Shown here: positions 301 through 42,189 of the stretch, piece after piece
Position numbering within the stretch: position 1 is the first letter of the stretch
Layout: each line of letters opens with the position of its first letter
NCBI GenBank assembly: GCA_051313645.2
Contig: JBNRSN020000021.1
Coordinates: 66,464,001 to 66,528,000 of the forward strand
Reading direction: 5' to 3'
DNA from: Centroscyllium fabricii
Taxonomy: Eukaryota
Length of the DNA stretch: 64,000 bases
Position numbers and translations under genes: made by a program
Notes under the pieces: model-generated
Seen by the model: only the letters and a program-made list of their open reading frames with translations
Told to the model about the DNA's origin: nothing
Databases searched by the model: none

Positions 301-1349
301 CTTTACCTTCCTTTTGGCACATAACCGCAGCACATTGGTTAGTTCCCTGTTTAACCCACCTTTCTTTTTCAGTGTCTGGCGCTTTTCCAGCACTAGGCTA
401 CTAATTGGCTCTTCCTTTATCTTTGCTGTTTCTAAAGCTGCCTGTGCCGCTTCATCTGCGGCCCGATTACCTTGGTGATTTTACCAGTCTAGGCTGGTTT
501 TGTCTTACTCCCTCTGTTGTGCCTTTAACTAAATATTGCTGCCTGTCTTTTCTCCTATGTCTCATACTGATTGAATCACTTGGGGATATAGCAGCACCAT
601 CTCCCATTTGACCCTTTTGATGCGGGAGACGGATCTTAACTTTCCTGTTTTCTTAAAAGTTCTAAATTCTCAATTGGTGTTGTAATACTCCTGTTTCTAT
701 CTCGCACCCTCAATCACTTCCTCTCTCCACTTTACACATTCCATTAACTTTCACTCATATCTCATTCATGAGCCCTGGAGTAACTTTACTGTTTAGTAAA
801 ATATTTAAGATTGAAAACATATCAAACATTCTCACTTGGTCCAAGCTATTAACACCTTTTATTTATTGTTATTTTAGAGGATCTTTTATTTTTCCAAAAG
901 TAACCCAATATATATATATTGCCTGGGTCCAATTATCTCTAAATGTCAGGCTAAAGTTGTTGCTCGTTGAACTTAGACAACTGTCTGTGGAAAGGGTTAA
1001 CTTCTCTGCAGATTTTTAGAAGGTGGAGCTAAACAATCATGGCACACATAAGCATGTAACTTCACGTATCAAACTGCTTTGGAAGATTTCACTATAGCAA
1101 CCGTGTCTTCCAAGGTTAAATCTTAGACTGAAACTTAATCTTTTGTTGTTCTTCTCAGTTTTTTAAAAAATACCAGATTAAACTTAAATTAGTTCAAAGT
1201 TTTTCAATTCTTGAGGCACAATCTTATTCGCACATTCTTAAAATTTACAAAATCCAAAACAAGACAAAGGAGCTAAGTTCTTTTAACTCAGAGAAGTGGG
1301 AGGAGCTAAAACAAACATAACAGAATCTTCTTTTTTAAAGACAGATTTC

Positions 1350-1865
1350 TCAAGCAAAAGAAACACTAACTTCCTCAATATTCAGGAAAATATTCAGTTT
1401 TCCCTCTTTCTGGATCTCAGGGCTTGCTTTCAATCCTGCATCCCTAAGTGCTAACAGACGGATCCATGTATACTGTTTATCTCCTACCGTGAAGGCAAAT
1501 TTCTCCTGAGATCCTGGGTCCAATGGAAGTGCCCAGAATCCGTTAGCTATGTCTAAAACCGAAAATATCTTATGTTCCGGACCCAGTCCATTTAAAATGG
1601 TTGCTGGGCTCGCCACTATGGGGTGGAGTTTTGGTGTTACCTTATTTAAGGCTGTATAGTCAATTAAAACCTGGTATTCCTTCATTAGGTCATTCCCCAT
1701 TATTGTCCCTACGCTATTTTTACACACACAGAATTTCATTGGGATATACCATTTATCAATCTGTACTAGCTGTACTGTACTGAGATAGGCGGGTGTTTTG
1801 TCTCCCCCTGTTCTGGTAATAAAGATCTCATTGTAATGGGGCCATTGCCTCCTTGTCAATTTCAT
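1350..1865 (-). pseudogene. Internally deleted retroviral protease/RT remnant
   Basis: Protease C-terminal motif (GTIMGNDLM) joined to RT motif VLDIANGFWALPLDPGSQEKFAFTVGDKQYTWIRL, then directly to LRDAGLKAS; the LPQG and YxDD motifs are missing. Confidence 0.85.
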
Positions 1866-2577
1866 CTATCAATCATACGGGCGCTGAACCCCGTACGGGG
1901 ACGGTCCTATTCTCATTCTCCACTACAAGCCTTTTGTTCTTGATTTATTCCTTCTAAAATTTCTATCTTTTCATACTTGGCTGTCTGGTCTATGTTTCCC
2001 AGATTTTCTCTGTGGTCAGGTAATCCTGCCATCTGGTGGACTAATATGACTGACTGACTAACATCCCATCCGTCCTTCTGCATTTTCTCAATCAGCGAAC
2101 TTCTATCTGTCATATAAGCGCTAATGAGGGAACCCGGGGGGGGGGGGGCCCTGTTTAACTTCCTTACTGAACATCCTTGGCTCGCTTTATCGAACACTCT
2201 CCAGTAAACACTCACCGCCCCTTTGTGCTCGTTCGTCACCGCGGGTTCGTGACCTCGTTTACCGACGTGTATCGTTCTCTGACCACTCTCCAGTAAACAC
2301 TCACCACCCCGTGGGTTCGTGACCTTGTTTACCGACGTGTATCACCGCCTGGGGTTTTCCGGACTTCCCAAGCCTCGTGAAGGTTTAACTCTAGTTAACC
2401 TGCTTCTTTAAAAGTCTGAGATAAATGCAAAACACTTACAATGCTTTTCCGTACTCTTAATTATACCCGAGAGTCCCAAGACCAAACCCAGTAAGATACA
2501 CTCTCGCAAATTTTCCTCAGATTCTTTTTGATCAACGAGCCCACCGACACTTGATCAAGGTGTTCGTGGGAGTCGTT

Positions 2578-2595
2578 ATCCTGCCGACTACGCCA
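2578..2595 (-). promoter_or_regulatory. Primer binding site complementary to tRNA-Ser
   Basis: Minus strand TGGCGTAGTCGGCAGGAT is complementary to the vertebrate tRNA-Ser 3' end (ATCCTGCCGACTACGCCA) and lies 2 nt from the LTR end. Confidence 0.9.
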
Positions 2596-2597
2596 GA

Positions 2598-3258
2598 TGT
2601 AGTAGGAAAATTTATGTATTGATTAACTGAAGCCTGGCGGACGAACCGTGAAGGAACGTCGACGCTACTCAGCCTAATCACACAGAGTAATAAAACTCAA
2701 ACTCAGATTGTCTGTTCAAAATGCGAGAGTATATTTTATTCAAGCGGAGCTCCGGGAGATAAGTGCAAGTCACACTTTCTCAAAATAGCTGTTAGTCATT
2801 TTTATACAATATTTCAAAGCATTTGCGCGCGTTACATTTTCTTAAGTCAATCAATAAATTGTTTCTAGGCATATTACATTATTGTTAGCCAATTAACTCA
2901 ATAACCTCTAACCTACGTCAACAAGCTAACCTTATCTTGCACCTGCAACTACCCCCTAGCTTCTTCTAAGACCCCATTGTATTCTGTTTTTAGTTCGTTT
3001 CTCTATGTCCCTTTGTTGATTTACATCTTTAATTAACTTCTAATCTGTTTCCACAGTTGAAGCTCACTCCTCGTATCTGTTCCCATAGCCTTGGAGTTTT
3101 CAAACCGTCTAGAATATGCTGCAGTTGTATATTATTTAATTCTCTTTAAAACGTCCTCAGTATTACCCTGTTAACCCTTTGGCGGCGTTTCTTATGCCTT
3201 TTAAATTTAAAGAGTCCATTAAAGCTTTTAGTCCAAGCATCGAAAATTTACTCCAACA
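2598..3258 (-). mobile_element. 5' LTR of endogenous retrovirus (element spans <1..3258)
   Basis: TG...CA termini with imperfect inverted repeats (TGTAGTAGGAAAATTT / TGTTGGAGTAAATTT); minus-strand TATAAA near 2801-2806 and AATAAA at 2735-2740; adjacent PBS. Confidence 0.8.
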
Positions 3259-3840: not shown

Positions 3841-4237
3841 ACATAGAAACATAGAAACATAGAAACTAGGAGCAGGAGTAGGCCATTCGGCCCTTCTAGC
3901 CTGCTCCACCATTCAATGAGATCATGGCTGATCATCCAAACCCAGCACCCCGCCCCTGCCCTCTCCCCAAATCCCTATCGAGCCTGCATCGACACATATC
4001 CCACCCTATCCCCATATATTCAATCCCCCTAACACTAAGGGTCATTTTATCCTGGCCAATCAACCTAACCTGCACATCTTTGGACTGTGGGAGGAAACCG
4101 GAGCACCCGGAGGAAACCCACGCAGACACGGGGAGAATGTGCAAACTCCACACAGATAGTCACCCGAGGCCGGATTTGAACCCGGGTCTCCAGTGCTGTG
4201 AGACAACAATGCTAACCACTGTGCCACCGTGCCGCCC
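3841..4237 (-). mobile_element. HE1-like V-SINE (tRNA head, V domain, CR1 tail)
   Basis: Head GGGCGGCACGGTGGCACAGTGG with B box GGTTCAAATCC; V core TGTGGAGTTTGCACATTCTCCCCGTGTCTGCGTGGGTTTCC; tail (TTTCTATG)n. Confidence 0.9.
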
Positions 4238-4384: not shown

Positions 4385-7300
4385 TTTTTTTTTATCCGTT
4401 GATGGGATGTGGGCATCACTGGCTGGCTAGGCTTGCATTTAGTGCCCATCCCTAATTGCCCTTGAGAAGATGGTGGTGAGCTGCCTTCTTGAACCGCTGC
4501 AGTCCATATGGTGTAGGTACACCCACAATGTTGTTCGGAAGGGAGTTCCAGGATTTTGGCCCAGCGACAGTGAAGGAGCGGCGATACAGGTCCAAGTCAG
4601 GATGGTGAGTGGCTTGGAGGGGAACTTGTAGGTGGTGCTGTTCCCATGCGTCTGCTGCCCTTGTCCTTCTAAGTGGTAGAGGTCGCGGGTTTGGAAGGTG
4701 CTGTTGAATGAGCTTTGGCGAGTTGCTGCAGTGCATCTTGTAGATGGTACACACTGCAGCCACAGTGCGCCGATGGTGGAGGGAGTTAATGGTGAAGGTG
4801 GTGGATGGAGTGTCAATCAAGCGGCCTGCTTTATCCTGAATGGTGTTGAGCTTCTTGTGTTGTTGGAGCTGCACTCATCCAGGCAAGTGGAGAGTATTCC
4901 ATCACACTCCTGACTTGTGCCTTGTAGATGGTGGAAAGGCTTTGGGGAGTCCGGAGGTGAGACACTCGCCGCAGAATTCCCAGCATCTGGCCTGCGTTTG
5001 TAGCCACAGTATTTATATGGCTGGTCCAGTTCAGTTTCCGATCAATGGTAACCCCCAGGATGTTGATAGTGGGCGATTCAGCGATGATAATGTTACTTGC
5101 CACTTGTCAGCCCAAGTCTGAATGTTGTCCAGGTCTTGCTGCATATGGACACGGACTGCATCAGTATCTGACGAGTCTCGAATGGTGCTGAACAGTGTGC
5201 AATCATCAGCGAACATCCCCACTTCTGACCTTATGATGGAGGGAAGGTCATTGATGAAACAGCTGAAGATGGTTGGGCCTAGGACACTGCCCTGAGGAAC
5301 TCCTGCAGTGATGTCCCGAGGTTGAGATGAATAACCTCCAACAACCACAGCCAACTTCCATTTGTGCTAGTTATGATTCCAACCATTGGAGAGTTTTCCC
5401 CTTGATTCCCATTGACTTCAGCTTTACCAGGGCTCCTTGATGCCACACTCGATCAAATGCTGCCTTGATGTCAAGGGCAGTCACTCTCACCTCACCTCTT
5501 GAGTTCAGCTCTTTTGTCCATGTTTGGACCAAGGCTGTAATGATGTCAGGAGCTGAGTGTCCCTGGCGGAACCCAAACTGGGCATCAGTTAGCAGGTTAT
5601 TGCTGAGTAAGTGCCGCTTGATAGCACTGTCGACGACACCTTCCATCACTTTGCTGATGATTGAGAGTAGACTGATGGGACGGCAATTGGCCGGGTCAGA
5701 TTTGTCCTGCTTTTTGTAGACAGGACATACTTGAGCAATTTTCCACATTGCTGGGTAGATGCCAGTGTTGTAGCTGTACTGGAACAGCTTGGCTTGGGGC
5801 GCAGCTAGTTCTGGAGCACAAGTCTTCAATACTATTGCCGGAATGTTGTCAGGGACCATAGCCTTTGCTGTATCCAGTGTCTTCAGCCGTTTCTTGACAT
5901 CACGTGGAGTGAATTGAATGGGCTGAAGACTGGCATCTGTGATGCTGGGAACTTCAGGAGGAGGCCGAGATGGATCATCCACTCGACATTTCTGGCTAAA
6001 GATAGTTGCAAATGTTTCAGCCTTGTCTTTTGCACTCACGTGCTGGACTCCACCATCATTGAGGATGGTGATATTTTTGGAGCCTCCTCCTCCTGTTAGC
6101 TGTTTAAGTGTCCACCACCACACACGACTGGATGTGGCAGGACTGCAGAGCTTTGATTTGATCCGATGGTTGTGAGATCGCTTAGCTCTGTCTATCGCAT
6201 GTTGCTTCTGTTGTTTGGCATGCAAGTTGTCCTGTGTTGTAGCCTCACCAGGTTGACACCTTATTTTTCGGTATGCCTGGTGCTGTTCCCAGCATGCTCT
6301 CCTGCACTCTTTGTTAAACCAGGGTTGATCTCCTGGCTTGATGTTAATGGTTGAGTGAGGAATATGCCGGGCCATGCGGTTACAGATTGTGGTTGAATAC
6401 AATTCTGCTGCTGCTGATGTCCCACAGCGCCTCATGGATGCCCAGTTTTGAGTTGCCAGGTCTGTTCAAAATCTGTCCCATTTAGCACGGTGGTAGTGCC
6501 ACACAACATGGCAGAGGGTATCCTCAACATGAAGACGGGACTTCATCTCCACAAGGACTGTGCTGTGGTCACTTCCACTATTGCTGTCATGGACAGATGC
6601 ATCTGCAACAGGTAGATTGGTGAGGACGATATCAAGTAGGTTTTTCCCTCTTGTTGGTTCCCTCACCACCTGTCGCAGACCCAGTCGGGCAGCTATGTCC
6701 TTTAGGCCTCGGCCAGCTCGGTCAGTTGTGGTGCTATCGAGCCACTCTTGGTGATGGACATTGAAGACCCCCACCCAGAGGACATTTTGTGCCCTTGCTA
6801 CTCTTAGTGCTTCTTCCAATTGATGTTCAACATGGAGGAGTACTGATTCATCAGCTGAGGGAGGGCGGTAGGTGGTAATTAGCAGGAGGTTTCCTTGCCC
6901 ATGTTTGACTTGATGCCATGAGACCTCATGGGGTCCTGAGTCAATGTTAAGGACTCCCAGGGCTACTCCCGCCCGACTGTATACCATGGTGCCTCCACCT
7001 CTGGTGGGTCTGTCCTGCCGGTGGGACAGGATGTACCCAGGAATGGTGATGATGGTGTCTGGGACATTGGCTGTAAGGTATGGTTCTGTGAGTACGACTA
7101 TGTCAGGCTGTTGCTTGACTAGTCTGTGGGACAGCTCTCCCAATTTTGGCACAAGCCCCCAGATGTTTGTGAGGAGGACTTTGCAGGGTCGACAGGGCCG
7201 GTTTGCCGTTGACGTTGTCGTTTCTGGTGCCGAGGTCGATCTGTCCGGTTTTACTCTTATTGTTTTTCGTAGCGGTTGTTTACAACTGAGTGGCTTGCTA

Positions 7301-7607
7301 GACCATTTCAGAGGGCATTAAGAGTCAACCACATTGCTGTGGGTCTGGAGTCGCATGTAGGCCAGACCAGGTAAGGACGGCAGATTTCCTTCCCTAAAGG
7401 GACATTAGTGAACCAGATGGGTTTTTACAACAATCGACAATGGTATCATGGTCGCCATTACTAAGACTAACATTTAATTCCAGAATTAATTTGAATTGAA
7501 TTTAAATTCCACCAGCTGCCGTGGTGGGATTTGAACCCATATCCTCAGAGCATTTGACTGAGCCTCTGGCTTACTAGTCTAGTGACATAACCACTACGCC
7601 AACACTG
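4385..7607 (-). mobile_element. CR1/L2-group non-LTR retrotransposon (decayed APE-RT ORF) with tRNA-like 5' head and no ORF1
   Basis: APE (LTNIWGL, LTEPYL, SDH) in 6466-7190; RT (QFGFR, LDIKAAFD, GVPQGSVLGP, FADD) in 5031-6435; C-terminal segments 4452-5103; short A-tail near 4385; A/B boxes at 7591-7601 and 7527-7537. Confidence 0.88.
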
Positions 7608-8289
7608 TTGTTGTTGTGAGCTGCTGGAATCATGCCCCATTTGGGGCACTCATGAATTTAGGCCCTGCTGTGCTTAATGCACATAAATGATGGTATGATG
7701 GCTTCAAACTTTAATTTTGATAATATCAGTAAGAAAAAGAGGGTCTTAAAGAAAGAAGTTGTCATATGATCTGTGCTTTTCTCTGGTCTGGATTGATTAC
7801 GCTGATTTCTGCTTGTTTAATGCAGGTTTTTATATGGTGTATGCTAATATGATTTGCAGGAAATTTGGATGTACATTTCCATCTGCAAGATCATGTTGTA
7901 ACTGACATACATTTCAGTGTAATTTCTGCATAAGCATGATCCAGGAAATTCAGGCCATTTATCACATTGGTGTGGGCTGGATTCAAACTGAATCCCAGTC
8001 ATACAAGGATACTGGGTCATGGACTATGATCCTTGATTCCTTCCATCTCATTGCACTGTCAAATCTCCTCCCAATGGATTCAGTTTTCAGTAAGCTTCCA
8101 TTCCCAATGGATACTCCAATTCATTCTGTGTAAAATTCCCATTCTGGGAACTGATTAATCCTGTCCGATTAAAGGATTTTAACATTTATTTTTGAGAAAC
8201 TGTGGAAATCACTTTCAGTCAAAAAACAATCTGACTGCAATCCTTGCAGATTGAGTCTTTATGAGATCACTCAACAGAAGACTTTATGG

Positions 8290-8629: not shown

Positions 8630-9036
8630 ACCATAGAATCATAGAAACATAGAAACTAGGAAACTAGGAAACTAGGAGTAGGCCATTCGGCCCTTCGAGC
8701 CTGCTCTGCCATTCAATGAGATCATGGCTGATCATCCAAACCCAGTACCCCACCCCTGCCCTCTCCCTATCGAGCCTGCATCAACACATATCCCACCCTA
8801 TCCACGTAACCCCACATATTCAATCCCCCTAACACTAAGGGTCAATTTATCATGGCCAATCAACCTAACCCGCACATCTTTGGACTGTGGGAGGAAACCG
8901 GAGCACCCGGAGGAAACCCACGGCGACACGGGGAGAATGTGCAAACTCCACACAGATAGTACCCGAGGCTGGATTTGAACCCGGGTTTCCAGTGCTGTGA
9001 GACAGCAGTGCTAACCACTGTGCCACCGTGCCGCCC
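8630..9036 (-). mobile_element. HE1-like V-SINE
   Basis: Near-identical to 3841-4237. Confidence 0.9.
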
Positions 9037-10406: not shown

Positions 10407-12369
10407 ATGACAAATGGAAGGGCAAGAGCAGCTCCTTGTTTTGACGAGGTGGCACTGCAGGCATTGGTGGATGGGGCTAGGGCCAACAGGGAGGTCCTGT
10501 TCCCTTCATTAGGGAGGAAGAGGCCTTCCACTCAGAACAAGGCTGTATGGATGCAGGTGGCTGAGGAGGTCAGCTCCTTGGGAGTCACCCGCAGAACCTG
10601 GACACAGTGCAGGAAATGTTTTAATGACCTTCAGCGCACTGGAAAAGTGAGTATGAATTTCCCATCACCCTCCATCTGATCCCCATTGCCTTCCTTCACC
10701 AGCAGTCAGCTTTAGCAATCTCTTCCTCCACATCCCACTTGACACTGACATCCATGCACCCTTACCCATTCCCTCTCTCTCTATGCTCACATTCACATAA
10801 CTATTCGACCATGCCACCCTCACACTCCCTCTCACTCTGATGCTTTGAACACAACTGACAACACACAGGGAGGGCCCTTGGTCTTGCAATCTCACTTGAT
10901 CTTTGTCTCCTTCTAAGTATCTATGCTATGCAATCTCTACACTCACTCCTTCATTCTCACTCAACCTCCACTTGTCTCCCTCATTGCAGGAAAAGAGAGC
11001 TCACAACATGAGAGAGTGAGCCAGGACATGAGGAGGGCCACCCTCAATAGTCCACCTGACCCCCTGGGAGGAGGCCGTCCTGGAAATCATGGGCATTGAG
11101 GATGATTTGCGCATGGGGGATGGACAGATGGGTGCAACACAGCAAGCTGGTGACAGAAAAGTTTCCCATCTCTCTCTTTGACATTGGATGATTCGCTGAT
11201 AATGATTGCGAAGCTGTGACAGATGGACTTATGAGCATCTGCAAAAGGCTATGTGCATGTAGCCTTGGCATCATATCTTAACTCTTTCCTTTACTTCCCC
11301 ACAGGACCATCACAAGCATCCATCCCGCCTAGCCAGGAAGAAGAGGCTGAGCAGCCAGCCTCCTCAGAGGAAGCTGCAACCTCTGAGGGCACAGCATCAG
11401 CAGAATTCTGCGCACCCAGCACCAGCGCAGACACTCGCACCTCGGTGGGACCTTCGGGACATAGAGTAATATTGTCACCTGGGGTATCACAGCTCACAAG
11501 TAAGCATCAGCAGATTGTGGAGACAGGGACAGCAGTGGAGAGTCCTAGTCGGAGGGTGCAGGACTCTCCCAGCTCAGCTCAGCAACATGTCGACCCTTTG
11601 CCTCTGGGTCCATCCATAAGATCAGAGATGATGAAACTCCATGCACAAATGCAGGAGTCTCTGGCAGGTTTTGTCTCTAGGGTCACCGAGTGTGGAGCAA
11701 ATGGAGGAGTCCTTAGCAAACATGAGCAGAGCCTTCGTGGAGTTATTGGTGCATGAACGCATCACCACGGAAAGGATGGCTACCTCCGTGGTAAGGCTGG
11801 CTACCATAGAGGAGAGGATGGCTACAGTAGAGGGGAGGAGGGCTACGGCCATGGAGGAGCTTAGTCACCAGGGTATGGAAAACATGGGCATTGTTCAGAA
11901 TAGAATGACATCTCTTGAGGAGTGATGGGCATTTATTGAACTGAGAAACTAGACCTTCATGGAAGTCCTTCTGAGTAGAACTGCCATTGAAGATACGGGT
12001 CCCCATGGCTCCCCTGATGTGCAGCAAGGTGCTCTGCAGCCACCTACAGGCGCTGAGGGGAACCTGACCCCTGAGAGGGAGGTTGGTGGCAGACCTCAAA
12101 GAAGTGGGGGCTCCTCTCCAAGCTCTCACACTTCCATGCCACTGCACTGCCCTCGGTCAGAGCCCCGCCGGAGTCCACACCCAAGTGAGATAGATGTCTC
12201 AACCCCTGCACAGCTGCAGGAGCAGCAGACTGTTGACGAGCCCTCACAGGCTCCCAACCCCAGAGGATGCCTGCCAAAGGTGTCGAGACAGGAGCAGCAG
12301 GAAAGTGAGCAAGGGGCTTTTAATTATGCTGAAGCCACAGGGAAAGCTCGGTGTAGGAGCATGCATTAA
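10407..12369 (+). pseudogene. Harbinger Myb/SANT (trihelix) DNA-binding gene, 3 exons (10407-10646, 10990-11148, 11305-12369), disrupted
   Basis: RAAPCFDEVALQALVDG...W..VAEEV...RRTWTQCRKCFNDL; GT-AG introns; stop codon in exon 2 and frameshifts in exon 3. Confidence 0.82.
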
Positions 12370-12648
12370 GAGGAAAATAAAGCACTAGTAGTCACAATGG
12401 TTGTCACTTGGGTGAAATGTTGTGTTTATTGTAAAAATGCCATCAGTTGGTTCTTGTACATAAAAATTCTGATGGCAACTGTTGCCGTTTTGGCATCTGT
12501 CATTTCGCGAATGGGACTTTCACATTGAGGGCTTAAGATTAATTGCAGTTGTCAGTATGCTGGTCAAATAGCTAGGAATCCACAGGGTCTTGGCCACTGT
12601 CGATGCTCAGGTAAGGATCTGCGAGGCAAAAGTGTTTGATTGACTAGG

Positions 12649-13877
12649 CTAAGCAAATCTGGCCAGGATGAGTGCGTTCCTTGCATTCCGGGCAGCAATG
12701 TTTTCGCTTAATGCTGCCGCTGGTTGATGGGCCACTGCAGGATCTTCATTTTTGCCCTCCTCCTCCTCCTTCTCCTCCTCTGAGGAGGATATGTGAGGAG
12801 CCACTTGATCCTCAGGAATCCGCATGCTATGATGCTGTGCCATGTTGTGAAGTACGCAGCATACCACGATGATTCTGGAGACCCTGGCTGCTGAGTACTG
12901 TCGGGCTCCACCTGATCTATCGAGGCATCTGAAGCGCATCTTCAGCAAACCGATGGTTTGCTCTATAATGGATCTGGTGAAAATGTGGCTGGAGTTGTAG
13001 CGCTCCTCAGCTTCGTTGGCTGGCCTCCTCAACAGCGTCATTAGCCACGTCCTCAGAGGATAGCCCTTGTCTCCAATTAGCCATCCATTAAGTTGGTCTG
13101 GTGGACTGAAGAGTGGAGGCACACTAGACTGGCGCAGTATGAAGGAGTCATGACAACTGCCTGGGTACATCGCACAAACATGCAACATTTCCTTCTTGTG
13201 GTCACACACCAGCTGAACGTTGAGGGAGTGGAAGCCCCTGCTGTTGACAAAAATACCTAGATTGTGATGGGGTGCCCTAAGGGCCACATGTGTGCAGTCA
13301 ATGACACCCTGCACCCTTGGAAAGCCTGCCAGATGAGCTAATCCAACCGCTCACGCCGTGACACTTGCTTGATCCTTGGTGAAATGGATGTGATTGTGCA
13401 CGAGGGCAAAAGGGGCATCGGTTACCTGCGTGATGCAAATGTGTGCGGCTGCCTGGGAAATACCGCTGATGTTTGCTGCTGATCCCTGGAATGAGCCTGA
13501 AGCAAAACTGTTGAGTGCGGTGGTGACTTTGATGGCCACTGGTAGTGGTTGTCCACCTGGTCCTCTGGGCAGCAGGTCTTGCTGTAGCATTGCGCAGATG
13601 TCAGTCACTACCTGTCGCGAAAGTCAGAGCTGCCTTTGGCACTGCCACTCAGACATGTTGAGGTAGCTGACCCTGAGTCTGTAGACCCTGTTTGGGGTTA
13701 TCTCCTGCGCCAACGGGCTTCCAGGCCCTGGCCCCTTCTGGCCTGTGCAGCTTCAGGTGGGTGAGCAGCAGCCTGGTGCTCCTGCTGCTGCTGCTGTTGC
13801 TGCTAATGATGTTCCTGGTTCTCCTGGTGCTCGAGCTCCTCTAATGCCCAGATGGGAAGGAAATAAATGGCTCCCAT
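12649..13877 (-). pseudogene. Harbinger (HARBI1-like) DDE transposase, disrupted
   Basis: [49 protein letters not shown]; stops in the N-terminal half. Confidence 0.9.
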
Positions 13878-14725: not shown

Positions 14726-15405
14726 TGATTAAGTAGCTTGCCAACAATCACTGTCAAGACTTGCACCTGAATATAGGTAAAAGCCTTCAGGAAGAGAGGG
14801 GAGAAAATTGGCAAAAAAATACACATTTGTATTGAATTTCTGCCAAATAAGAAACAAACACACCATGTCAGTATCTTCCCATCATGTTTCACATCAATTA
14901 CAGGGTAATGAACTTATTGTGTAGAAGGTCTCCTGTAGAAACACAGAGCCCACTGAAACACAGAGAAACACCTGTTTAAGGGTTTTGGCAGGCGTGAAAG
15001 TGCAGCTGATTCAGTCATTCATTCTGAGCTTCGGTGTCTGCTGTTGGGTGGTTTATTAGCTATTGAATCTTTGTTCAAACAAAATCTCATTTTCTCACTG
15101 GTCTACAGGACAAATCATAGAATCATAGAATCCCTACAGTGCAGATAGAGGCCATTTCGGCCCATCGAGCCTGCACCGACACATATCCCACCCTATCCCC
15201 GTAACCCCACATATTTAATCCCCCTAACACTAAGGGTCAATTTATCATGGCCAATCAACCTAACCCGCACATCTTTGGACTGTGGGAGGAAACCGGAGCA
15301 CCTGGAGGAAACCCACGCAGACACGGGGAGAATGTGCAAACTCCACACAGATAAATGCAAGAAGTCACACAACACCAGATTATAGTCCAACAGTTTTATT
15401 TTAAA

Positions 15406-15443
15406 TCACAAGCTTTCGGAGCTTCTGCCCCTTCGTCAGATGA
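15406..15443 (-). ncRNA. Minimal hammerhead ribozyme motif
   Basis: UCAU CUGACGA A GGGGC-AGAA-GCUCC GAAA GCU U GUGA. Confidence 0.7.
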
Positions 15444-15860
15444 AAGAGAGACTGACTTAAAGAACGCACATGTGTGATGAAGAGAGAAATCTGATATCTC
15501 CCACATCTCACCTCAGTAGAGCTAGACACACAAAGGCTTATTAACATATTTTAAGTGTTTCATTTAAACATAGCATATACAGAGAGAGATAACAATGTGG
15601 TCTCTCCAGTTGTTTCACATCACACCTCAGCTGAGGGACATCAAAGCAGTCAAAGGTTTTCCAACATATCAAAGGTTGCAGTCACAAAGGGTCAAACTGG
15701 AGAGACCACATTGTTATCTCTCTATATATGCTATGTTTAAATGAAACACTTAAAATATGTTAATAAGCCTTTGTGTGTCTAGCTCTACTGAGGTGAGATG
15801 TGGGAGATATCAGATTTCTCTCTTCATCACACATGTGCGTTCTTTAAGTCAGTCTCTCTT

Positions 15861-15898
15861 TCATCTGATGAAGGGGCAGAAGCTCTGAAAGCTTGTGA
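15861..15898 (+). ncRNA. Minimal hammerhead ribozyme motif
   Basis: UCAU CUGAUGA A GGGGC-AGAA-GCUCU GAAA GCU U GUGA. Confidence 0.65.
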
Positions 15899-16993
15899 TT
15901 TAAAATAAAACTGTTGGACTATAATCTGGTGTTGTGTGACTTCTTGCATTTGTCCACCCCAGTCCAACACCGGCATCTCCACATTATGTCCACACAGATA
16001 GTCACCCGAGGCCGGATTTGAACCCAGGTCTCTAGCGCTGTGAAGCAACAGTGCTAACCACTATGCCACCGTGCCGCCCTGTGGCAAAGAGGCTTTCAGG
16101 TGCACTGCAAACCAAACCCCACCCATTCTGCAATCCCCACTTCAGGATGGATCTCCTGTGCTTCAACATGTCAAATATGTTAAAAAGTTAAAGACTGAAA
16201 GAGAGAGAAACATAATGCAGTGAAAGAGACAAAGGATAGAGTGCAAAATGCAATTGGACAGCAGCATTCTAGATCTCTAAGTTGTTGCATTCTGTGCTCC
16301 TCCAAATCATTACCCGAGGTCTATATTCAACAAACATTCAGTAGCTACCCAGAGATCCAAGACAGAAAGAGAAAGGCAGGGCAAAACAAAATAGGGAAGT
16401 AGAGAGTAAGGCAAGAGAAACAGAGACAGAGAGAGCCTTGATGTGGAAGGAGAGATGGAAAGAAAGGAAACACCCCCAGAATATTTACAAATATATATTC
16501 AAATTATTGAAAAAGTTGTAAGTATATGACTAATTTGTACACAATATAAATTTAAGCTGGATAATATCAGAACAGATAAAACAAATATATACCTTCATTA
16601 ATAAAGAGCTGACTGTTTTGTTGATCTGCTAACATTAAAATTGTAAATCTACCGCAGTAGACTGCTTGGGAAATGTTTAAGTTTTAATTCTGGTTTTATT
16701 TTGGTTGCAGTTATAATGAAGTTATCTCTCACACTTGGAGCCAAAAGCCAAGCCAATGGTGGTTTGGCTGCAGTTAGGATGCACAGTTTGCATTTCTGTG
16801 AAGCTGAAACCGATCTGTATCAATACACAGCAAACTACCCTGCAAAACTCTTTACTATAATCATTGTATTGGCACTATCTAATGTTCCTTTTGTTTTGCG
16901 AAAGTAATACCTTGGATAATTTCAGTTCTGGTGCATGGGAAATGCTTTTATTTTTTTGCCTTGGGTTGAGATAACCTTTAAAAAAACCACATT

Positions 16994-18608: not shown

Positions 18609-20099
18609 TGAAAGAATTCTGGCCTTATTAAAACACAATAAACTGGGTTTGGAAATTTAGAAACCTAACTATGAAATAGATATGAAAGAATTCTGGCTAT
18701 TGAGATAAGACAGTTGTTGACCCTGAATTAATAACCTTATTGAAACAGAAGGTGCATGGCTCTGACAGGCTGACCTTTGGGAATAAAAACAATGGTTCAC
18801 CTTGGATAAGGTGTTCTAATTTAAACTTCGTAAAGATGGCACATAAGATAAGAAACATCTGCCCTCGTAAAGATGACATAAAATAAGGAACACCTGCCTT
18901 TCACACCATTCTATATGTTCACCTTCGAACACCTGGAGATGAAACAAGATTCTGGCTGATGTAGCAGTAAGAATTGCAGAGGTTGGCAGAAAGAGGAATA
19001 GGGATAATCGACTTGCATCAGCAGAAAACCTTAAAGGAATTACAACTGGAAAAGGGTATAAATATTGAAGTTTCAAATCTGATATCAGACTCGCTTTAAT
19101 CAGGCAAAGCAATTCTCAACCACAGAGGCGGCTCTGTAGTCTCCAACTCTTCGTACCTCGGGGACCAAACGTATTTGATATTGATGGATATCCTTTATAA
19201 GGAACCTTTAAAAACTGTAATATTATAGCAAAGTTAATATTTAAAAGTAAGATTCCCTGCTAAAAAGATTGTATGTTTTCTCTTTATAGAACTGTTAATG
19301 TTGCGATTGACTGATTCACCAACTGTAAATTGCATATTGGTTCTTTTAATAGATCACTATATATTTTTAAAATTGTCTCACATAAGTCTTCTGTAACAAA
19401 AATTCATGAACTCAATCGCTGTACACTCTTTGGTGAAGAGTTTCATTTCTGGGGAAGTTTTCCAGATGCTCATAATATCCGGAACGTTACAGCCTAGCTA
19501 AACTTATTAAAAGTGCTACATGGAGGACAGTAAAATTTTCAGGTTGTTCCTATCCTTTAGGGAGAGATAGCCCGGACCTTTATACCCAATTAAGCATCTT
19601 TAGGATTTGGCTACCTCAAACTTTAGTTGAAAATGAACGTCTGAGAAATATGCCTGATCCGGGGTAGCCTTAAAGGGGCTAGGGCTAGTAAATATCCCTT
19701 CAATCTGCAAGGATGCAGTGTTTCATTACTAGATGTGCCATTGCTGCTTTAACATAGAACTTCGTTTTATCCTGCTTCTGGGCACAGACTGGATGCTGCG
19801 CAGGTACCGTGCGCCCCAACTGGGAGGCCTGAAACCAGTGCAAAATTGGACATTGAGCCTCATTAACATTTTATGTGCTAGCGGACACCACTTGTCACAC
19901 CTCCACAAGCTGCTCGTGCATTGCCGATGCCAAATTTCAGGCAGCCTGCCTCACTGGCATCAGCCCGAAGGTAAGTCCCAGGCGAGAGGTTGGAATGGGA
20001 AACATGGATGGGGGGGTGCGCAGGTGATGGATCACAATAACTGTGGAGGCGGGGGAGCACACCTGCTCCTCCTATCTCCATAGACAGGTTTATTTTTAT

Positions 20100-20410
20100 A
20101 GCTGTTCTGGAACAGCTTGGCTAAGGAGATGCCTAGCTCTGGTCAGCAGCTCTTCAGCACCATATTCAGGATGTTGTCAGGTCCCATAGCCGTGTCTGTG
20201 TCTACTGCACTCAGCTTCTTTTTAATGTTACATGTTGTGAACCAGATTGCCTTGACATTGGCGTCAATTGTGTTGGGTGCTTGGGAGAAAGCCAAGTAGG
20301 AGCATTGACTCAGCACCTTTGGCTGAGCTTACAAGCACTTCAGTTTTGTCTCTTGTATTCATGTGCTAGGCTTTATCATGTTTGAAGATGTGGAGGTTCA
20401 TGGAGCCTGC
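20100..20410 (-). mobile_element. Decayed fragment related to the 4385-7607 LINE
   Basis: Aligns by eye with 5772-6085 (CTGGAACAGCTTGGCT...GATGTTGTCAGG.CCCATAGCC). Confidence 0.65.
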
Positions 20411-20994
20411 TAGTTAGTTACCTATTTGTAAAATGGCAGCTTCCATACTGAATTTGATTTTGCTAATCATATTAAAATAAGCAGCTGCATGGTCAGTTTT
20501 CTTTTTACTGAATGTTTGCTCATCAAGGTGGTAAATGTTAATGGATCAAATGGAACATTTTATCATTTTAGGTACTCATTGTGAGTACCAAGTTTGGGTA
20601 AAGCCCCTCTACTTTGCCCATAAAATGTGCCTTAATGCCAACCTCAGAAAGCATCTGTCTCCCTTGTCATTGCGACATTCCACTGACAGCCATTCTATGC
20701 CCTTTTTGAGTAGGGCAATTTAGTTCCAATTAGTGCCAGATTAAGGGCAGTTTTGTGCTTTGAACTATGCCCTCCAGGAGCTGAGTTGAAGCTGTCCAAA
20801 TTAATTTCAGTTTGGACCCTTATGGCCTTACTGTATTGATATAGCATTGTGTTTAAATTCATGTATCTGCAGTACTGACAGAGCAAATTTGTAACCTTCA
20901 ACTTGTGGACAAATGCCAATTGTACTTCTTATGTAGTGAGTAAAGTGAATAGGTGGCAGGAGAGGCTACACTTGTAAATGATTATGGTGGGTGG

Positions 20995-21057: not shown

Positions 21058-21707
21058 AATAGGCAGGAATGTTCTGGCGTCCATGCGGGCTGGATTGGAG
21101 GCGGGTCTGGAGGGAAATTTGAAATAACTTTAGTGGGTCGGAAACCCGCCGTCATCCTGCCCCCGTGCACCTTTCCCTCAAGCATGTTTGCCAGTGTGGC
21201 AGCAACCCGAACGGCAGAGGCGGCAGAGGTAATTTAGATCATTATGAGGTACTATCAGATCCTTAATTGTCATTTTAACTTTACCTTACAAATTTCAAAT
21301 TTCCCTGGATGACCACGGGAATCACACAGCTTGGGAATCATGTCTGTGAACCTGAGGCGGAAGTTAAGTGGCTATTGATTCAGCTCATTAGTGCACAGCA
21401 TGAAAAGCACAATTAATACTCCCACCTGACACCTAGTTACTTTCCCAAGGCAGATGCTGTTCCTGACTGCATTGTCAGCACAGCATTAGCTTTCTAGAGG
21501 TTGCAAGTCTTTTCAGCAAAGTGGGGATCCACTGTCACCTCATTGGTACCACCTATCACACCATTGACAGATTGCTTCTGTCATCGCTACTTGACCTGCC
21601 ATCTATTACATAAGCATGGGTGCTGTTTATACTGTCTCGCCTTGGTCCTCAGAATCGGACCTTGATGAGCTCCAACACCAGCAGCACCAGGCACACCAGC
21701 AGGACCA

Positions 21708-22111
21708 ACATAGAAACATAGAAGATAGGAGCAGGAGTAGGCCATTCGGCCCTTCGAGCCTGCTCCGCCATTCAATGAGATCATGGCTGATCATCCAAAC
21801 CCAGTACCCTGTCCCTGCCTTGTCCCCATATCCCTCGATCCCTATCGAGCCTGTACCGACACATATCCCACCCTATCCCCGTAACCCCACATATTCAATC
21901 CCCCTAACACTAAGGGTCAATTTATCATGGCCAATCAACCTAACCCGCACATCTTTGGACTGTGGGAGGAAACCGGAGCAGCCGGAGGAAACCCACGCAG
22001 ACACGGGGAGAATATGCAAACTCCACACAGATCGTACCCGAGGCTGGATTTGAACCCGGGTCTCTAGTGCTGTGAGGCAACAGTGCTAACCACTATGCCA
22101 CGGTGCCACCC
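21708..22111 (-). mobile_element. HE1-like V-SINE
   Basis: Same head, V core and CR1 tail as other copies. Confidence 0.9.
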
Positions 22112-22840
22112 AACACCACTAACTTTCTCCTCACCAACCTGATGCTGCACAGGACAGAGGGCATCTGCGCAAAGTTGCACCATACTGGAGGCGATATCCC
22201 AACACAGGGTATACAGGCAGAGGATGAGCTTCCTCAACATGACTGAGCAGCAGTGCCAAAGGAGGCTCAGGCTATCACGCCAGGTCATCGCAGACATTTG
22301 CAGATTGCTGGAGGAAGACCTGGAGTCCAGAGGAACGGGTGGACACACCTTACCAGTGGCTGTCAAAGTCACCAGCACCCTCAACTTCTTCACCTCAGGC
22401 TCCTTCCAGGGATCTGCAGCAGACATCTGTGGCATCTTGCAGTCGGCCACCCACAGATGCATCACACAGGTCACTGATGCCCTGTTTGACAAGTCAGCCA
22501 ATTATATCAACTTTGCCACTGATGAAGTCAGTATTACTGAGCGGGCACTCGACTTTGCCACTCTGGCTGGCTTCTCACAGGTGCAGGGTGTCATCGACTG
22601 CACACATGTGGCCATCAGGACACACCATCATCATCACCCAGGAGTCTTTGTCAACCGCAAGATCCTCCATTCCCTCAATGAGCAGCTCATCTCCAATCAC
22701 AGTAAGATCATCATGCGTTTGTGGGCCAAATTCCCTGGCAGCTGCCGTGATTCTTTCGTCCTGTGCCAGTCCACCCTCCCTCAGCTCTGCGCTCCTCCAA
22801 ACAGACTTTCTCGCTGGCTGCTTGAAGACAAGGGCTATCG

Positions 22841-23250
22841 ACGGTGGCACAGTGGTTAGCACTGCTGTCTCACAGCACTGGAGACCCGGGTTCAAATCCA
22901 GCCTCGGGTACTATCTGTGTGGAGTTTGCACATTCTCCCCGTGTCTGCGTGGGTTTCCTCCGGGTGCTCCGGTTTCCTCCCACAGTCCAAAGATGTGCGG
23001 GTTAGGTTGATTGGCCATGATAAATTGACCCTTAGTGTTAGGGGGTTTGAATATGTGGGGTTATGGGGATAGGGTGGGATTTGTGTCGATGGAGGCTTGA
23101 TAGGGATTGAGGGATATGGGGAGAGGGCAGGGGCGGGGTACTGGGTTTGGATGATCAGCCATGATCTCATTGAATGGCGGAGCAGGCTCGAAGGGCTGAA
23201 TGGCCTACTCCTGCTCCTAGTTTCTATGTTTCTATGTCTATGTTTCTATG
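22841..23250 (+). mobile_element. HE1-like V-SINE
   Basis: Same family, plus strand, inserted just after DKGY. Confidence 0.9.
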
Positions 23251-24684
23251 ACACCCCTGAGGAGGTCAAGTACTGAGGCCGAGGAGTGATATAATGAAAG
23301 TGACATTTCAACCAGCAGTGTCATAGAGCAAACAATAGGCATATTGAAAATGCGCTTTAGATGCTTTGATAGATCTGGAGCAACCCTTCAGCACACAGCA
23401 GCCAGGGTCTCCAGAATCATCATGGTCTGCTGTGTCCCGCACAACATAATGCAGCAGCGAGGATTAGCGCTGCATGAGGAGCAAGGCTCTGAGCGCACAG
23501 GAGGAACCTGCGGTCCAGATGTCACCAGAATCCGAGCATATTGTTGCCCGGAAGGCCAGGGATGGGCTCATCATGGCCCGATTTATTTAACTTCATGCAT
23601 TACACCCATATGACTACCACATGCTGTGCCAGGTTCCTGCTGCCCCACAGCAACACCATAAAGCATCGCTACCATGACCAGACCATTCCAATCACACTGA
23701 CAACCATTGCTGGAGGTAACATTATGTCTCACCATTCACTCCAACTCACTAAGCCACTTCCAAAGTTGCAGACACAATTGGCACAGTGGTGAAAATAAGA
23801 ATTTTTATCTGAGACATCTCATTGATGGAAACTTCACACAAATAGTTATTAAAACACTCAAGTGCTTAACCTTGTGCATCTACTTGAGTGTTATCTTTCC
23901 CTTATGCATGCTTCTACGAGGTGCTACCCCTATGGCTTCAGCAGAGGTAGAGGCAGTCTGCTCACTTCCCCGCTGCGACTGCATAGACACTTTTGGAGGA
24001 TGTTCTCTGGGTCTTGAAGCCTGTGATGGCCCCGCCAAAGTCTGCTCCTCCTGCGATTGGTCGGGAGCAGACTTGGCCATCGCGATCCCGGGAGGCATGC
24101 GGGGCTCTGACTGCGGGGGAGTCAACAGGGGTGAAGCGTGAGCACTTTGAGAGGAGCCCCCACTTCCATGTTCCCTCTCACAGTCATCCCTCTCATGGGC
24201 CACCCACACTTCCCTGCTAGTAAGGGGCTGGGGAGCACCTTGCTGCACAGCAGTGGGGCCATGAGGACCCAAGTGTACATTGACATCTCTCCTAGAGAGG
24301 AGGTATATTAGCGTCTGCTATCTATTCTCCATAGATTCCATGTGTTCCTGTGAGTGGTACATTAACTGCTCAATGCAGGTGGCCATCCTATCCATCGAAG
24401 AGCCTACAGTTGCCATCACCTGTGACATGGTGGTGCTCATGTTGGTGATGGACTCCTCCATTCTCTGCACATTTGCAGACATCGCAGTTGCAAAACCTGC
24501 CAAAGCCTCCTGCACTTCTTGCTGCACGTCCAGGATTGCCCTTTTTCTGGAAGGCCCTCAAGGCTCAGCGTCTGAATGCAGCAGAGCAGAGCTGGGAGTG
24601 TCCTGCGCCCACTGGCGAGGAGTCTTCACTGCTGTCCCTGTCGCCACCATCTGCTCTTGCTCACTTGTGACTCATAGAGTCATA

Positions 24685-25457
24685 GGGCTCGAATTTCCCA
24701 GGGCCGTGGAGGCAGGAATGGAGGCGTGTGGGGGGTTAAAATTGTGAAATCCGGGGGCACGAATCCATCCCGCCCCCAAACCACCTCTATGCCCGTTTCC
24801 CAGGAGGCGGCTACCCGACCTGTGCTGGGAGCCGCCACCCCGAGGCGGGAAGGGGATTAGTGCCAATTAACTGCCTGTTAACAGGCAGTTTTTAGCATAA
24901 TCTCTATTTTTATCCCTGAAGTGTGGAATTCCCGATGGCTCCAAACCACGCCAAGTTAGCAAGGTGGGCCATCGGGCTGAAGGACTTGGAGGGTTCGAGA
25001 TGTCCAGTGTTCAGGTGAGTGATGGGTGCATGAATGCAGAGGTAAGTGTGTTTGGTGTGTGGAAAGTGTTTAAAGAAGTTTTACTTACCTTTACTTACTA
25101 ATGCAGGCTTCCTTCCTTTAGGTCTCTGGAGTCCCTCATCTCACTGGCACAGAAAGCAGAATGGCCACGAGCTGTCAAAATCTGCAGCCTCTGCTTTCTG
25201 TTCTGGAGAGATCTCTAAATCATCCTGAGAGGAAGGAATTAACTTAGAGTACCAGCTGTCAAACACTGATATTTCATCTGTCAAAAGCTCTTGACAGATG
25301 AAATGTCAATCTGTGATGTCACCTGTTAATGGGCGGGCTCAACAAGGTCAATCAAGGGAAAATCGAGTGGGTTGGCTGGAACTTGATAGAGGCGGGACTA
25401 CAACCACAAAAGTTGTAGTCCTGCCTCCTACTCACCTCCATTGATAAAATCCAGCTC
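24685..25457. mobile_element. Harbinger-like MITE A (ATA target duplication)
   Basis: Termini GGGCTCGAATTT and AAAATCCAGCTC, each flanked by ATA. Confidence 0.75.
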
Positions 25458-27273: not shown

Positions 27274-28334
27274 TATTTCCATCATAATCTTATACACCTC
27301 TATCAAATCACCCCTCAACCTCCTTTGCTCTAATGAAAACAAATCCAGCTTCTCCTTGTAGCTAAGATCCCCCATCCCCAGAACCATTCTGGTAAATCTC
27401 CTCTGCACCCTCTCAAGGGTCTTCACATCTTTCCTAAAGTGTGGTGACCAGAACTGGACACAATACTCCAGTTGTAAAGTTTCAGCATAACTTCTCTACT
27501 TTTGTGCTCAATACCTCTATTTATGAAGCCCAAGATCCCATATGCTTTGTTAACCACTCTCTCAATATGTCCTGCCACCTTCAGGGACCGATGCACATTA
27601 ACTCCCAGGTCCCTCTGTCCCTGCACACTCTTTAAAACTGTGCCATTAAGTGTATATTGCCTCTCCCTGTTCCTCCAGCCAAAATGCGTCACCTCACACT
27701 TCTCTATATTAAATTCCATCTGCCACTTGTCTGCCCATTCTGCTAGCCTTTCTATGGCCTGTTGCAGTCAATTGGTATCATCCTCACTGTTTGCCACATC
27801 TCCAAGTTTGATGTCATTGGCAAATTAATATTTTTACGCTGTATTTCAATATCCAGGTCACCTATATATAGCAAAAAAATCAGTGGCCCCAGCACTGACC
27901 CCTGGGGAACACCACTGTCCACCATCTTCAAGTCTGAAAAACAGCCATTTACCACAACTCACTGTCTTCTGTCCTTAAGCCAATTCCTTATCCAAGCTGC
28001 CACTAACCCATCTATTCCATGAGTCTCAATTTTGTTAATTTGTGAGACAGCAGGTGACAACACTACTCGATCTCGCGTTGGACCCACCGAGGTGTGCGTT
28101 TCTGCATTGGTGCTGGGTGTTCTTATGTCTGGTGATGCTGTACCTTCAGAGGCTGGAGTCTCCTCTGAGGAGTCATCTTCCTTTTCCTCCTGGACAGTGG
28201 TGGGGGGGGGGGGGGCACTTGATGGACCTGTGGGAGAGTAAAGAGATAATTTATAAATGTCATATCATGAATGGGTAACAATACGTTTATGCACATGATG
28301 AAAATTCACTGGCTGCTGACATCAGTCCCCATAT

Positions 28335-28995
28335 AGAACATAGAACATAGAACATACAGCACTTTACAGGCCCTTGGGCCCTCAATGTAGTGCCGCCCTT
28401 AGTCCGTCTCTGATTTTTCCTGTCCCCCCTACTGTTCCTTCCCCTCCATGTACCTGTCTATCATCCTTTTAAAAGCACCCAGACTGTCCGCATCCACTAT
28501 TTCAGATGGTAGCCTATTCCATTCCCCGACCACTCTCTGTGTAAAGAACTTGCCCCTGCCATCCCTTCTGAATCTTCCTCCTTGAATCTTGTGCTCGTGT
28601 CCTCTTGTTGTCGTTCTTCCCGCCCGGGGAAACAGTCTTTGCACGTTTACTCTATCGATCCCCTTCATCATTTTAAACATCTCTATCAAGTCCCCCCTCT
28701 TCCTTCTCCGTTCCAGGGAGAAGAGTCCCAGTTCCCTTAACCGTTCCTCGTATGACTTTCCCCCCATTCCCGGCAGCATCCTGGTGAATCTCCTCTGCAC
28801 TCTCTCCAGCGCCTCCACATCCCTCCTGTAGTACGGTGCCCAGAACTGCACACAGTACTCCACGTGTGGTCTCACCAGTGACCTGTACAGCTGCAGCATG
28901 ACCTCCCGGTTCTTAAACTCTATTCCCCTGTTGATGAAGGCCAATACACCATAGGCCTTTTTTACTGCCTTGTCCACCTGGGTGGCAGCCTTCAG
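28335..28995 (-). mobile_element. CR1 LINE 3' fragment (GC-rich family)
   Basis: Open frame VRPHVEYCVQFWAP...FFTQRVVGEWNRLP; (TTCTATG)n tail. Confidence 0.9.
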
Positions 28996-29495
28996 TGTGA
29001 GTGTTGTATGCCATGTGGCTGTATGAGATGTAATTCTGTCACCAGGTTGTTGAGATGACCCCCTCTCACCGTCTCCCACCTCCAGCTACTCTGCGACTCC
29101 TGAGACTTCCAGGGTGACCTCCTCTGCTGCAGTTAAGGTGGCCAATGATGGTTCTCTCCCTCTCCTTATTATGGGTACTCTTTTCCTGCAATGAGGCAAT
29201 GAAGAGAAGTTTGAGTGAGAGCGATGGAATGAGTGTAAGGAATGAATGGCCTACATCTTTAGAAGGTGACTATGAGGGAGTGTTGTGCCAATGACCTCCT
29301 TATGTGTTGTTAGTTGGTACGATTGCATTAGGATGAGGGTTAGTGTGAGGGGTGGTTAGTCAGATGGAGATGTGATATATAGATAGAGAGAGAGGGATGG
29401 GTGGATGTGCAAGGTATGTTGGTGTGAGGAATGATGTGCAGGATAGGGTAGGGAAGGCAGAGTGATAGGGATATGATGAGACGCACAACAGGATG

Positions 29496-32370: not shown

Positions 32371-32558
32371 AATAGGCCCCATTAACAGAAAGTTGATCTC
32401 AGGACCGGAATGGAATGAGCAGCGGGGTCGCGACCTGCCACGGCAACCACCTACACCCGACCCGCCCAGATACAGAAAATTCCGGCCACAATGACTCATC
32501 TGAAAGACTGTACCTCTAAAAGTGAAGCAATCTGTTACTGTTGGTGCAACTGAACGTC

Positions 32559-32872
32559 GCTCGAAGTCCCGCTCCCGGGTCTGGCCTTTGCCTCCTCCGC
32601 TGCTCCTTTGAAGCCTGCCGCTCTGCTCGAAGCCCCGCTCCCGGGTCTGGCCTTTGCCTCCTCCGCTGCTCCCTTGAAGCCTGCCGCTCTGCTCGAAGTC
32701 CCGCTCCCGGGTCTGGCCTTTGCCTCCTCCGCTGCTCCTTTGAAGCTTGCCGCTCTGCTCGAAGTCCCGCTCCCGGGTCTGGCCTTTGCCTCCTCCGCTG
32801 CTCTTTTGAAGCCTGCTGCTCTGCTCGAAGTCCCGCTCCCGGGTCTGGCCTCTGCCTCCTCCGTTGCTCCTT
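32559..32872 (+). repeat. 66-bp tandem repeat (~4.7 copies) at the Rex1 5' end
   Basis: Units start at 32559, 32625, 32691, 32757, 32823. Confidence 0.95.
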
Positions 32873-35800: not shown

Positions 35801-35893
35801 CTCCCGGGCAGAACCAACAGGACTATTAACAGCTTCTTCCCCTCAGCTGTCAGACTGTTGACAAAGAACTCCACCCCGTCTCATACGGCCTAG
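32608..35893 (+). CDS. Rex1 APE-RT polyprotein, split only by one +1 frameshift at the C8 run 34358-34365 (true start uncertain)
   Basis: ORFs 32608-34392 and 34289-35893 fuse into one frame ([16 protein letters not shown]) if one C is removed. Confidence 0.75.
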
Positions 35894-41815: not shown

Positions 41816-42189
41816 ATCATAGAACATAGAAGCAGGAGTAGGCCATTCGGCCCTTCGAGCCTGCTCCACCATTCAATGAGATCATGGCTGATCATCTAAA
41901 CCCAGTACCCCGCCCCTGCCCTCTCCCCATATCCCTATCGAGCCTGCACGGACACATATCCCACCCTATCCCCGTAACCCCACATATTCAATCCCCCTAA
42001 CATTAAGGGTCAATTTATCCTGGCCAATCAACCTAACCCGCACATCTTTGGACTGTGGGAGGAAACCGGAGCACCCGGAGGAAACCCACGCAGACACGGG
42101 GAGAATGTGCAAACTCCACACAGTCACCCGAGGCTGGATTTGAACCCGGGTCTCCAGAGCTGTGAGGCAACAGGGCTACCGCGCCGCCC
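41816..42189 (-). mobile_element. HE1-like V-SINE
   Basis: Same V core and CR1 tail. Confidence 0.9.

Follow-up and report, generated by a model that had tools for sequence, protein, structure and literature searches.

The minus strand of the window (the whole 64-kb stretch of DNA analyzed here) carries, from position 7601 to 4385, a decayed copy of a 3.3-kb repeat family, in which a tRNA-like head with A and B boxes is followed by a leader of ~240 nt, an APE-RT reading frame and an A-tail. Its parts are the following:

7517-7601, minus strand: tRNA-like head; the boxes are seen in it, and seven published Zenon consensuses from elasmobranchs open with the same head at their first base
7591-7601, minus strand: A box, TGGCGTAGTGG, read directly in the window sequence
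7527-7537, minus strand: B box, GGTTCAAATCC, read directly in the window sequence
7423-7512, minus strand: AT-rich spacer of the 5' leader, differing between subfamilies at 16 of 90 columns
7282-7422, minus strand: 140-nt ultraconserved leader core, differing between subfamilies at 1 of 140 columns; Deu motifs absent
7286-7311, minus strand: hairpin predicted by RNA folding, with a 7-nt anticodon-type loop CUAGCAA (7301-7295)
4452-7279, minus strand: remnant of a single AUG-less ORF, now broken, with a basic N-terminal extension, an APE endonuclease and an RT
6560-7182, minus strand: APE endonuclease domain (PF03372 and PF14529), 3' limit approximate
5034-5706, minus strand: reverse transcriptase domain, limits approximate (PF00078 in two pieces, split by a stop, a frameshift and a deletion)
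4385-4451, minus strand: 3' UTR with an A9 tail that ends at 4385, common to the LINE and the short elements

The A box, the B box, their spacing, the endonuclease motif, the RT and the tail all lie where the original prediction had placed them. From the B box, ~345 nt without poly-A lead to the K codon (7182-7180) of the endonuclease motif KVLLTNIWGL, and the Pfam matches to the EN and then the RT follow downstream of the head, ahead of the 3' UTR and the A9 tail. The stretch after the head had been called a SINE-like body: its ~330-345 nt without poly-A are indeed present, but they do not match the published Deu domain. The absence of an ORF1 is borne out, because in every complete copy the ORF is preceded by no more than ~330 nt and no ORF1 fits in the window copy.

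The window copy is dead. Its 5' end lacks the first ~10 nt of the family, its frame is interrupted by two stops (TGA at 6468-6466, TAA at 5373-5371), by frameshifts at 7239, 7199, 5360 and 4856, and by a deletion of ~75 nt near 5089, and the GDFN motif of its endonuclease has become GVFN (Asp-to-Val).

A repeated unit in a published family

When positions 7100-7610 were queried against the 7.2-Gb genome, all 40 scored matches (the window copy itself among them) spanned the head to the EN at 94-97% identity; the junction of head and ORF, whose copies the original prediction had proposed to count, is thus not unique to this locus. The upstream flanks of 30 fetched loci are unrelated to each other, with similarity ending at the head, and the same letters stand just before the A box in 23 of 29 copies. 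These 29 best full-length matches, each ~3.3 kb long, are as best matches biased toward intact copies. Flank matches of at least 9 nt were found for 9 of 25 complete copies, versus 25 of 600 mismatched pairs; clean TSDs were recognized by eye in five copies (L033, L037, L044, L050 and L059), and the flank matches of L039, L041 and L057 may be flank repeats. In an older subfamily, 77-87% identical, the head continues into the ORF in 12 of 25 loci. Together with the seven published consensuses, these observations indicate that head and ORF moved as one element, and no full-length member with a normal ORF1 and 5' UTR turned up among the complete copies. Head, leader, APE-RT frame and A-tail are therefore one repeated unit, shared by the two subfamilies of this genome and by five further elasmobranch species, for which the comparison covers the first 400 nt and the total length of the consensuses. 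The window copy has no clear TSD around it, as might be expected if a SINE had landed by chance beside a 5'-truncated LINE at this locus; the recurrence of the same junction in every scored match, in both subfamilies and in the five other species refutes this explanation, to which we assign a negligible probability.

Two side observations concern the copies and their relics. Six copies (L044, L046, L047, L056, L064 and L069) carry a T run directly before or within the A tail, which could be a built-in Pol III stop or a by-product of insertion. In addition, eight shark gene models from public databases (P0001, P0010, P0015, P0016, P0023, P0029, P0035 and P0038) contain pieces of the ORF at 67-88% identity and are probably annotation errors or exonised copies. 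Together with the identity of the family, these models point to an elasmobranch host.

By its sequence features the family is the elasmobranch Zenon (CR1-Zenon) LINE of Stuart et al. 2026 (PMC13343379), as that element appears in the main text and consensuses of the paper. In that paper Zenon occurs in elasmobranchs, coelacanth and hagfish; none of these elements has an ORF1, and all end in poly-A, a tail unique to Zenon among CR1-group elements. The window family likewise has a single ORF with APE and RT (972 codons), no ORF1 and an A-rich tail. A quick RT tree, which contained no labelled Zenon reference, groups it with single-ORF relatives of 930-980 aa (SH-aLRT 92-93). The published elasmobranch consensuses (CarCar, HypSab, RhiTyp, ScyCan Zenon-1 and SquAca Zenon-1/2/3, from four sharks and one stingray) resemble it in length (2.9-3.3 kb), in lacking ORF1 and in having a poly-A tail, and all seven begin with the same head and leader, as judged by eye and by motif search over their first 400 nt. 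They differ in an out-of-frame ATG that was lost in the young subfamily here. The head was not seen in the first 400 nt of three hagfish and coelacanth Zenon consensuses, two of which are in low-confidence letters there.

The missing ORF1, which the original prediction had taken for an oddity, is normal for Zenon (PMC13343379); the oddity is the tRNA-like head. The main text of that paper does not mention tRNA, Pol III or the start codon, and SINE occurs in it only in a reference. Thus the feature is real and family-wide, in a family already published, and the head is unremarked in the main text of its description. In the openly available full-text papers searched, no description of a tRNA-headed autonomous LINE was found.

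Horizontal transfer involving invertebrates, which had also been raised, finds no evidence here, the closest invertebrate relatives being only about 40% identical. No similarity to head or leader was found upstream of 80 metagenome loci or of 26 contaminant contigs in prokaryote assemblies, relatives that are 23-46% identical and many of which lack 5' ends; the viral contigs searched gave no match. In two Zenon-like contigs of the AUG type, each with 22 T4 runs, the 700 nt upstream contain no B box. The invertebrate Zenon-like relatives mostly start with AUG and have no A or B boxes where their DNA was seen; the head would quite probably have been gained after the split from the relatives seen here.

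Reading frame, head and leader

At least 950 codons are open in 10 of the 29 best copies, intact copies having 972, and the reference copy L038 shows the PF03372, PF14529 and PF00078 domains with intact catalytic motifs. Over the 485 codons compared between the subfamilies there are 65 synonymous versus 32 non-synonymous differences. These comparisons indicate that the frame is under purifying selection, and it is so without a usable AUG: the first in-frame Met of L038 is residue 286, past the endonuclease, and ACG stands at codon 4 in 28 copies, besides AAG. The leader contains ten AUGs, the last of which is in frame but is then followed by TAG and TAA, leaving a mini-frame AUG-GCC-UAG at the leader end; the out-of-frame ATG of other species is replaced by ATA in all 29 young copies.

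The long form could in principle be non-autonomous itself, its AUG-less frame remaining untranslated and another LINE mobilizing it, in which case the lack of an in-frame AUG before the endonuclease and the change of ATG to ATA would be unsurprising. Purifying selection, intact catalytic motifs and the long open frames all argue against this, as does the fact that the tail shared with the SINEs is the LINE's own, and we regard it as very unlikely. For most of the closest invertebrate relatives a Met is predicted some 5-40 residues ahead of EN motif I, and some start inside the motif; because most start with Met, the lack of an AUG looks like a derived state. L243:40-2900, an intact Zenon-like ORF of 953 codons that begins with AUG and has 58 nt of upstream sequence, came from a bacterial assembly, where it is probably host contamination.

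We next consider the head. Neither ARAGORN nor Rfam called a tRNA in it at normal thresholds; with relaxed thresholds, which also give false folds, ARAGORN produced a cloverleaf with a long variable arm. Between the subfamilies 1 of 11 columns differs in the B box and 15 of 53 between the boxes; 2 of 11 differ in the A box, a comparison that rests on few old copies (minimum 4) and shows conservation no better than chance would allow.

Depletion of T4+ runs on the sense strand had been proposed as a check on Pol III transcription. All eight intact ORFs tested contain none, versus 2.6-3.4 expected from codon shuffles (P 0.009-0.043 each), a modest test since the copies share one ancestor and hence are not independent; T3 runs number 7 versus 15.6 expected (P 0.001). 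The zero observed against about three expected in intact ORFs extends to 21 of 26 complete copies, which have no T4, and to the first 2 kb of the old subfamily, and the single T4 of the window copy stems from a C-to-T change that also created its stop. As controls, none of 60 distant LINE ORFs was free of T4 (median observed/expected 1.04), and a LINE of the same genome that we take to be Rex1-like has 7-8 versus 7.6-8.9 expected. The strongest depletion among the 60 was in L143:585-2111, from a LINE with a microsatellite tail and a missing 5' end, with one T4 versus 14 expected, and the AUG-bearing relative L243 has one versus 3.8 expected (P 0.057); poverty in T runs is therefore not specific. 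Weighing the scarcity of T4 and T3 and the conservation of the B box against L243, L143 and the shared ancestry, we lean toward Pol III as the transcribing polymerase.

If instead the element is transcribed by Pol II, the head would be a relic or would serve the short elements only, capped RNA would come from leader activity or host read-through, and the ORF would be reached by leaky scanning or reinitiation. Such a reading accommodates the strongest conservation, which lies in the core and not in the boxes, the in-frame AUG-GCC-TAG at the leader end and the low T4 of L243 and L143; moreover, other Zenons are described as having no Pol III promoters (PMC6740152). It does not readily explain why copies begin at the tRNA 5' end, with the same 5' letters in 23 of 29, why neither subfamily has T4 although the part compared shows 65 synonymous changes, or why the B box is kept, and the ten upstream AUGs would impede scanning. 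We therefore consider Pol II transcription rather unlikely and retain Pol III as the preferred polymerase. Contigs from four runs that may be RNA cover the head and the EN, a few of them bridging both, and are silent on strand, start and polymerase.

The leader behaves differently from the rest of the element. Between the subfamilies the ORF differs by 5.6-8.6% and the head and spacer by 18-20%, while the core differs at 1 of 140 columns, which points to strong constraint and makes the core a candidate translation or RNA-packaging element. In the predicted hairpin, with which the core ends, the loop CUAGCAA matches the tRNA anticodon loop in form, and its letters are complementary to an in-frame GCU at 7273-7271, which follows the last stop by three codons. 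All seven published elasmobranch consensuses contain GCTA, by eye, in the part compared. The loop/GCU feature, defined after it had been seen, occurs in 9 of 5000 shuffles, and the bases of the proposed pseudoknot can also pair in a competing 8-bp helix. No covariation supporting the loop/GCU pairing was found, leader and core fold no more stably than shuffles (core z -0.2), the list of predicted core helices contains no clear nested pseudoknots, and an Rfam IRES search of the leader gave no match at E≤10.

It is instructive to set the core beside the type 6 IGR IRESs of dicistroviruses, which are 126-205 nt long and start at a non-AUG codon, often GCU, by means of a pseudoknot that mimics an anticodon (PMC10516663). 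The core lies within this range at 140 nt and has a predicted anticodon-type loop at its end near an in-frame GCU, an arrangement that recalls their PKI, and the frame after it is AUG-less; it differs in having no Rfam match and no covariation, nested PKII/PKIII and L1.1 motifs were not recognized in it, and its predicted loop would pair with the GCU itself. In PMC3894237, such IRESs in non-LTR elements are raised only as a possibility. From the sequences, translation from a non-AUG start, probably directed by structure, is the likely mode; reinitiation after the mini-frame is a possible alternative to an IRES-type start, since the in-frame leader AUG is followed by TAG and TAA. In the common short forms the leader is retained up to and including the GCU codon, a hint that this codon marks the end of the working RNA element.

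The leader was also considered as a Deu domain, and this was rejected: the three Deu motifs are absent at one mismatch, only TGCCGTCC being shared, window matches are at chance level, and the leader has only an 8-10-nt word in common with the published Deu alignment (PMC7245038). The Deu-SINEs as published (SacSINE1, LmeSINE1 and AmnSINE1) resemble the present elements as tRNA-headed shark repeats with a conserved middle, but the middle domain, judged by that alignment, is a different one.

Taken together, we assign a probability of roughly 0.6 to the reading that the locus is a dead copy of a Zenon with a tRNA-like head, likely transcribed by Pol III, with a leader-directed non-AUG start and with SINEs arising from it by internal deletion. 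The head would, on somewhat better than even odds, act as an internal type-2 Pol III promoter, the T4-free element letting Pol III read through 3.3 kb. The RNA, uncapped if made by Pol III, might then load ribosomes via the 140-nt core and start near 7273 without an AUG, a step to which we give slightly less than an even chance; that an anticodon-mimicking pseudoknot is the specific start device is doubtful. By analogy with other APE LINEs, the protein would almost certainly nick DNA and reverse-transcribe from the 3' tail. Because the promoter is internal, a deletion keeping both ends would very probably yield a ready-made SINE. The boldest version, an autonomous SINE in the sense of a Pol III-made coding retrotransposon with a viral-type anticodon-mimicking IRES, kept through shark and ray history and repeatedly giving birth to SINE families, seems improbable to us.

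Short forms and the probable birth of SINEs by deletion

Exact 29-mer counts, which are lower bounds from words of differing mutability, are 16,754 for the head, 13,118 for the leader/ORF start, 4,124 for the EN and 38,087 for the tail, with 0 for reversed controls. The 13,118 leader/ORF-start matches cannot be taken as long copies, because the EN count and the fetched loci show that most are short forms. All 20 fetched loci (9 picked for a nearby tail match, 11 for head and leader matches only) are short elements of ~400-490 nt made of head, leader and tail. They fall into five junction classes, in L038 numbering:

344 to 3170 (9)
357 to 3199 (8)
360 to 3188
349 to 3200
345 to 3189

A sixth junction, 328 to 3238, had 116 exact matches for the pattern used, and further junctions occur among old short copies. 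Most breaks fall in the first codons of the ORF and rejoin within its last codons.

The short copies retain the A and B boxes and carry the subfamily-specific letters of the LINE. The identity of young SINEs is 97-98% to the heads of young LINEs and 83% to old SINEs. A tree of 30 rows, which retained 5 of the 20 young SINEs and 5 of the 11 young LINEs, unites the young elements of both kinds in a single branch (support 100/99) and requires a minimum of two changes in the SINE label. The many junctions and the grouping by age with the LINE indicate that the short elements are likely internal-deletion derivatives of the LINE, with repeated birth as the simplest reading. The derivation of short SINEs by internal deletion, as originally predicted, thus agrees with the six or more junctions, the shared subfamily letters and the grouping; the copies of head plus 3' tail that were to be looked for exist, also carry the leader, and outnumber the long form.

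The history could also have run the other way, a template switch having passed the head and body of an independent SINE on to the LINE, so that the short elements would be the parent SINE, kept matched by recombination. Exchange of modules among SINEs is well described (PMC5499810, PMC7245038, PMC5786205), the one-time source of the head must have been a tRNA or a SINE, and short forms are more numerous than long ones. Such a history sits badly with short forms that break at six or more points, mostly in the first ORF codons, and rejoin in the last codons, and with young SINEs that match young LINEs and not old SINEs; we judge it distinctly unlikely. A one-time ancient capture is compatible with these points.

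Deletion derivatives of this layout have a known counterpart. Lepidopteran Zenon and its SIDE Persaeus form a similar pair, the abundant derivative joining 5' UTR and ORF start to ORF end and 3' UTR (PMC6740152). Persaeus is described as lacking both a Pol III promoter and any homology to tRNA, whereas the shark LINE and its derivative both carry A and B boxes; since both bear the promoter head, the shark derivatives are structurally SINEs. They also share with tRNA-derived SINEs (SINE2), including the bipartite ones derived from RTE and Vingi, a tRNA head with a LINE-derived middle and tail (Kojima 2018, PMC5786205). In the SINEs covered there the head sits on a non-autonomous LINE remnant, while here it sits on a full coding element. 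The same source states that SINEs are unable to encode a protein, and finds only RTE and Vingi among LINE 5' parts in SINE bodies. An A/B-box head is present in both forms here; being short and non-coding is true only of the ~400-490-nt derivatives and not of the long form.

Under the usual division, LINEs code and use Pol II, and SINEs are non-coding and use Pol III. If the preferred reading is true, a coding LINE on a tRNA promoter breaks this division and would provide a natural 3.3-kb Pol III messenger. It would also offer a direct route to the birth of a SINE, with head, body and tail from one parent, and a testable reason for an ultraconserved SINE body, namely that this body has a working role in the leader of the parent. 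Since intact copies occur naturally, both the promoter and the non-AUG start are open to ordinary reporter assays. If Pol II proves to be the polymerase, there remain an annotation point and an AUG-less LINE with many deletion derivatives.

Other elements in the window

At 20096-20411 the minus strand also carries a fragment, 65% identical, from a more distant Zenon-like lineage. On the plus strand, 32554-35890 is a young LINE with APE, RT and PF09004, whose 5' end bears a 66-nt tandem repeat and of which many copies exist at 99-100% identity; from its domain set we take it to be Rex1-like, and it is the LINE that served above as the T4 control from this genome. A DDE_Tnp_4 transposon, presumably Harbinger-like, is represented by two diverged copies (68-74%) at ~10700-13800 and at ~22100-24700 with 28000-29450. 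An abundant tRNA-headed SINE of ~400 nt with a CR1-type tail, which we assume to resemble shark HE1/V-SINE and which is unrelated to the Zenon head, is found at 3842-4237, 8640-9036, 21707-22112, 22841-23250 and 41815-42178. A tandem array with a period of ~131 nt and a sub-period of ~66 nt occupies 29929-30788. Palindromic MITE-like repeats are present at 15350-15988, 40516-41036, 45091-45280, 50511-50631, 59971-60109 and 62715-62919, and one palindromic MITE-like copy is inserted into a SINE at 15161-16083.
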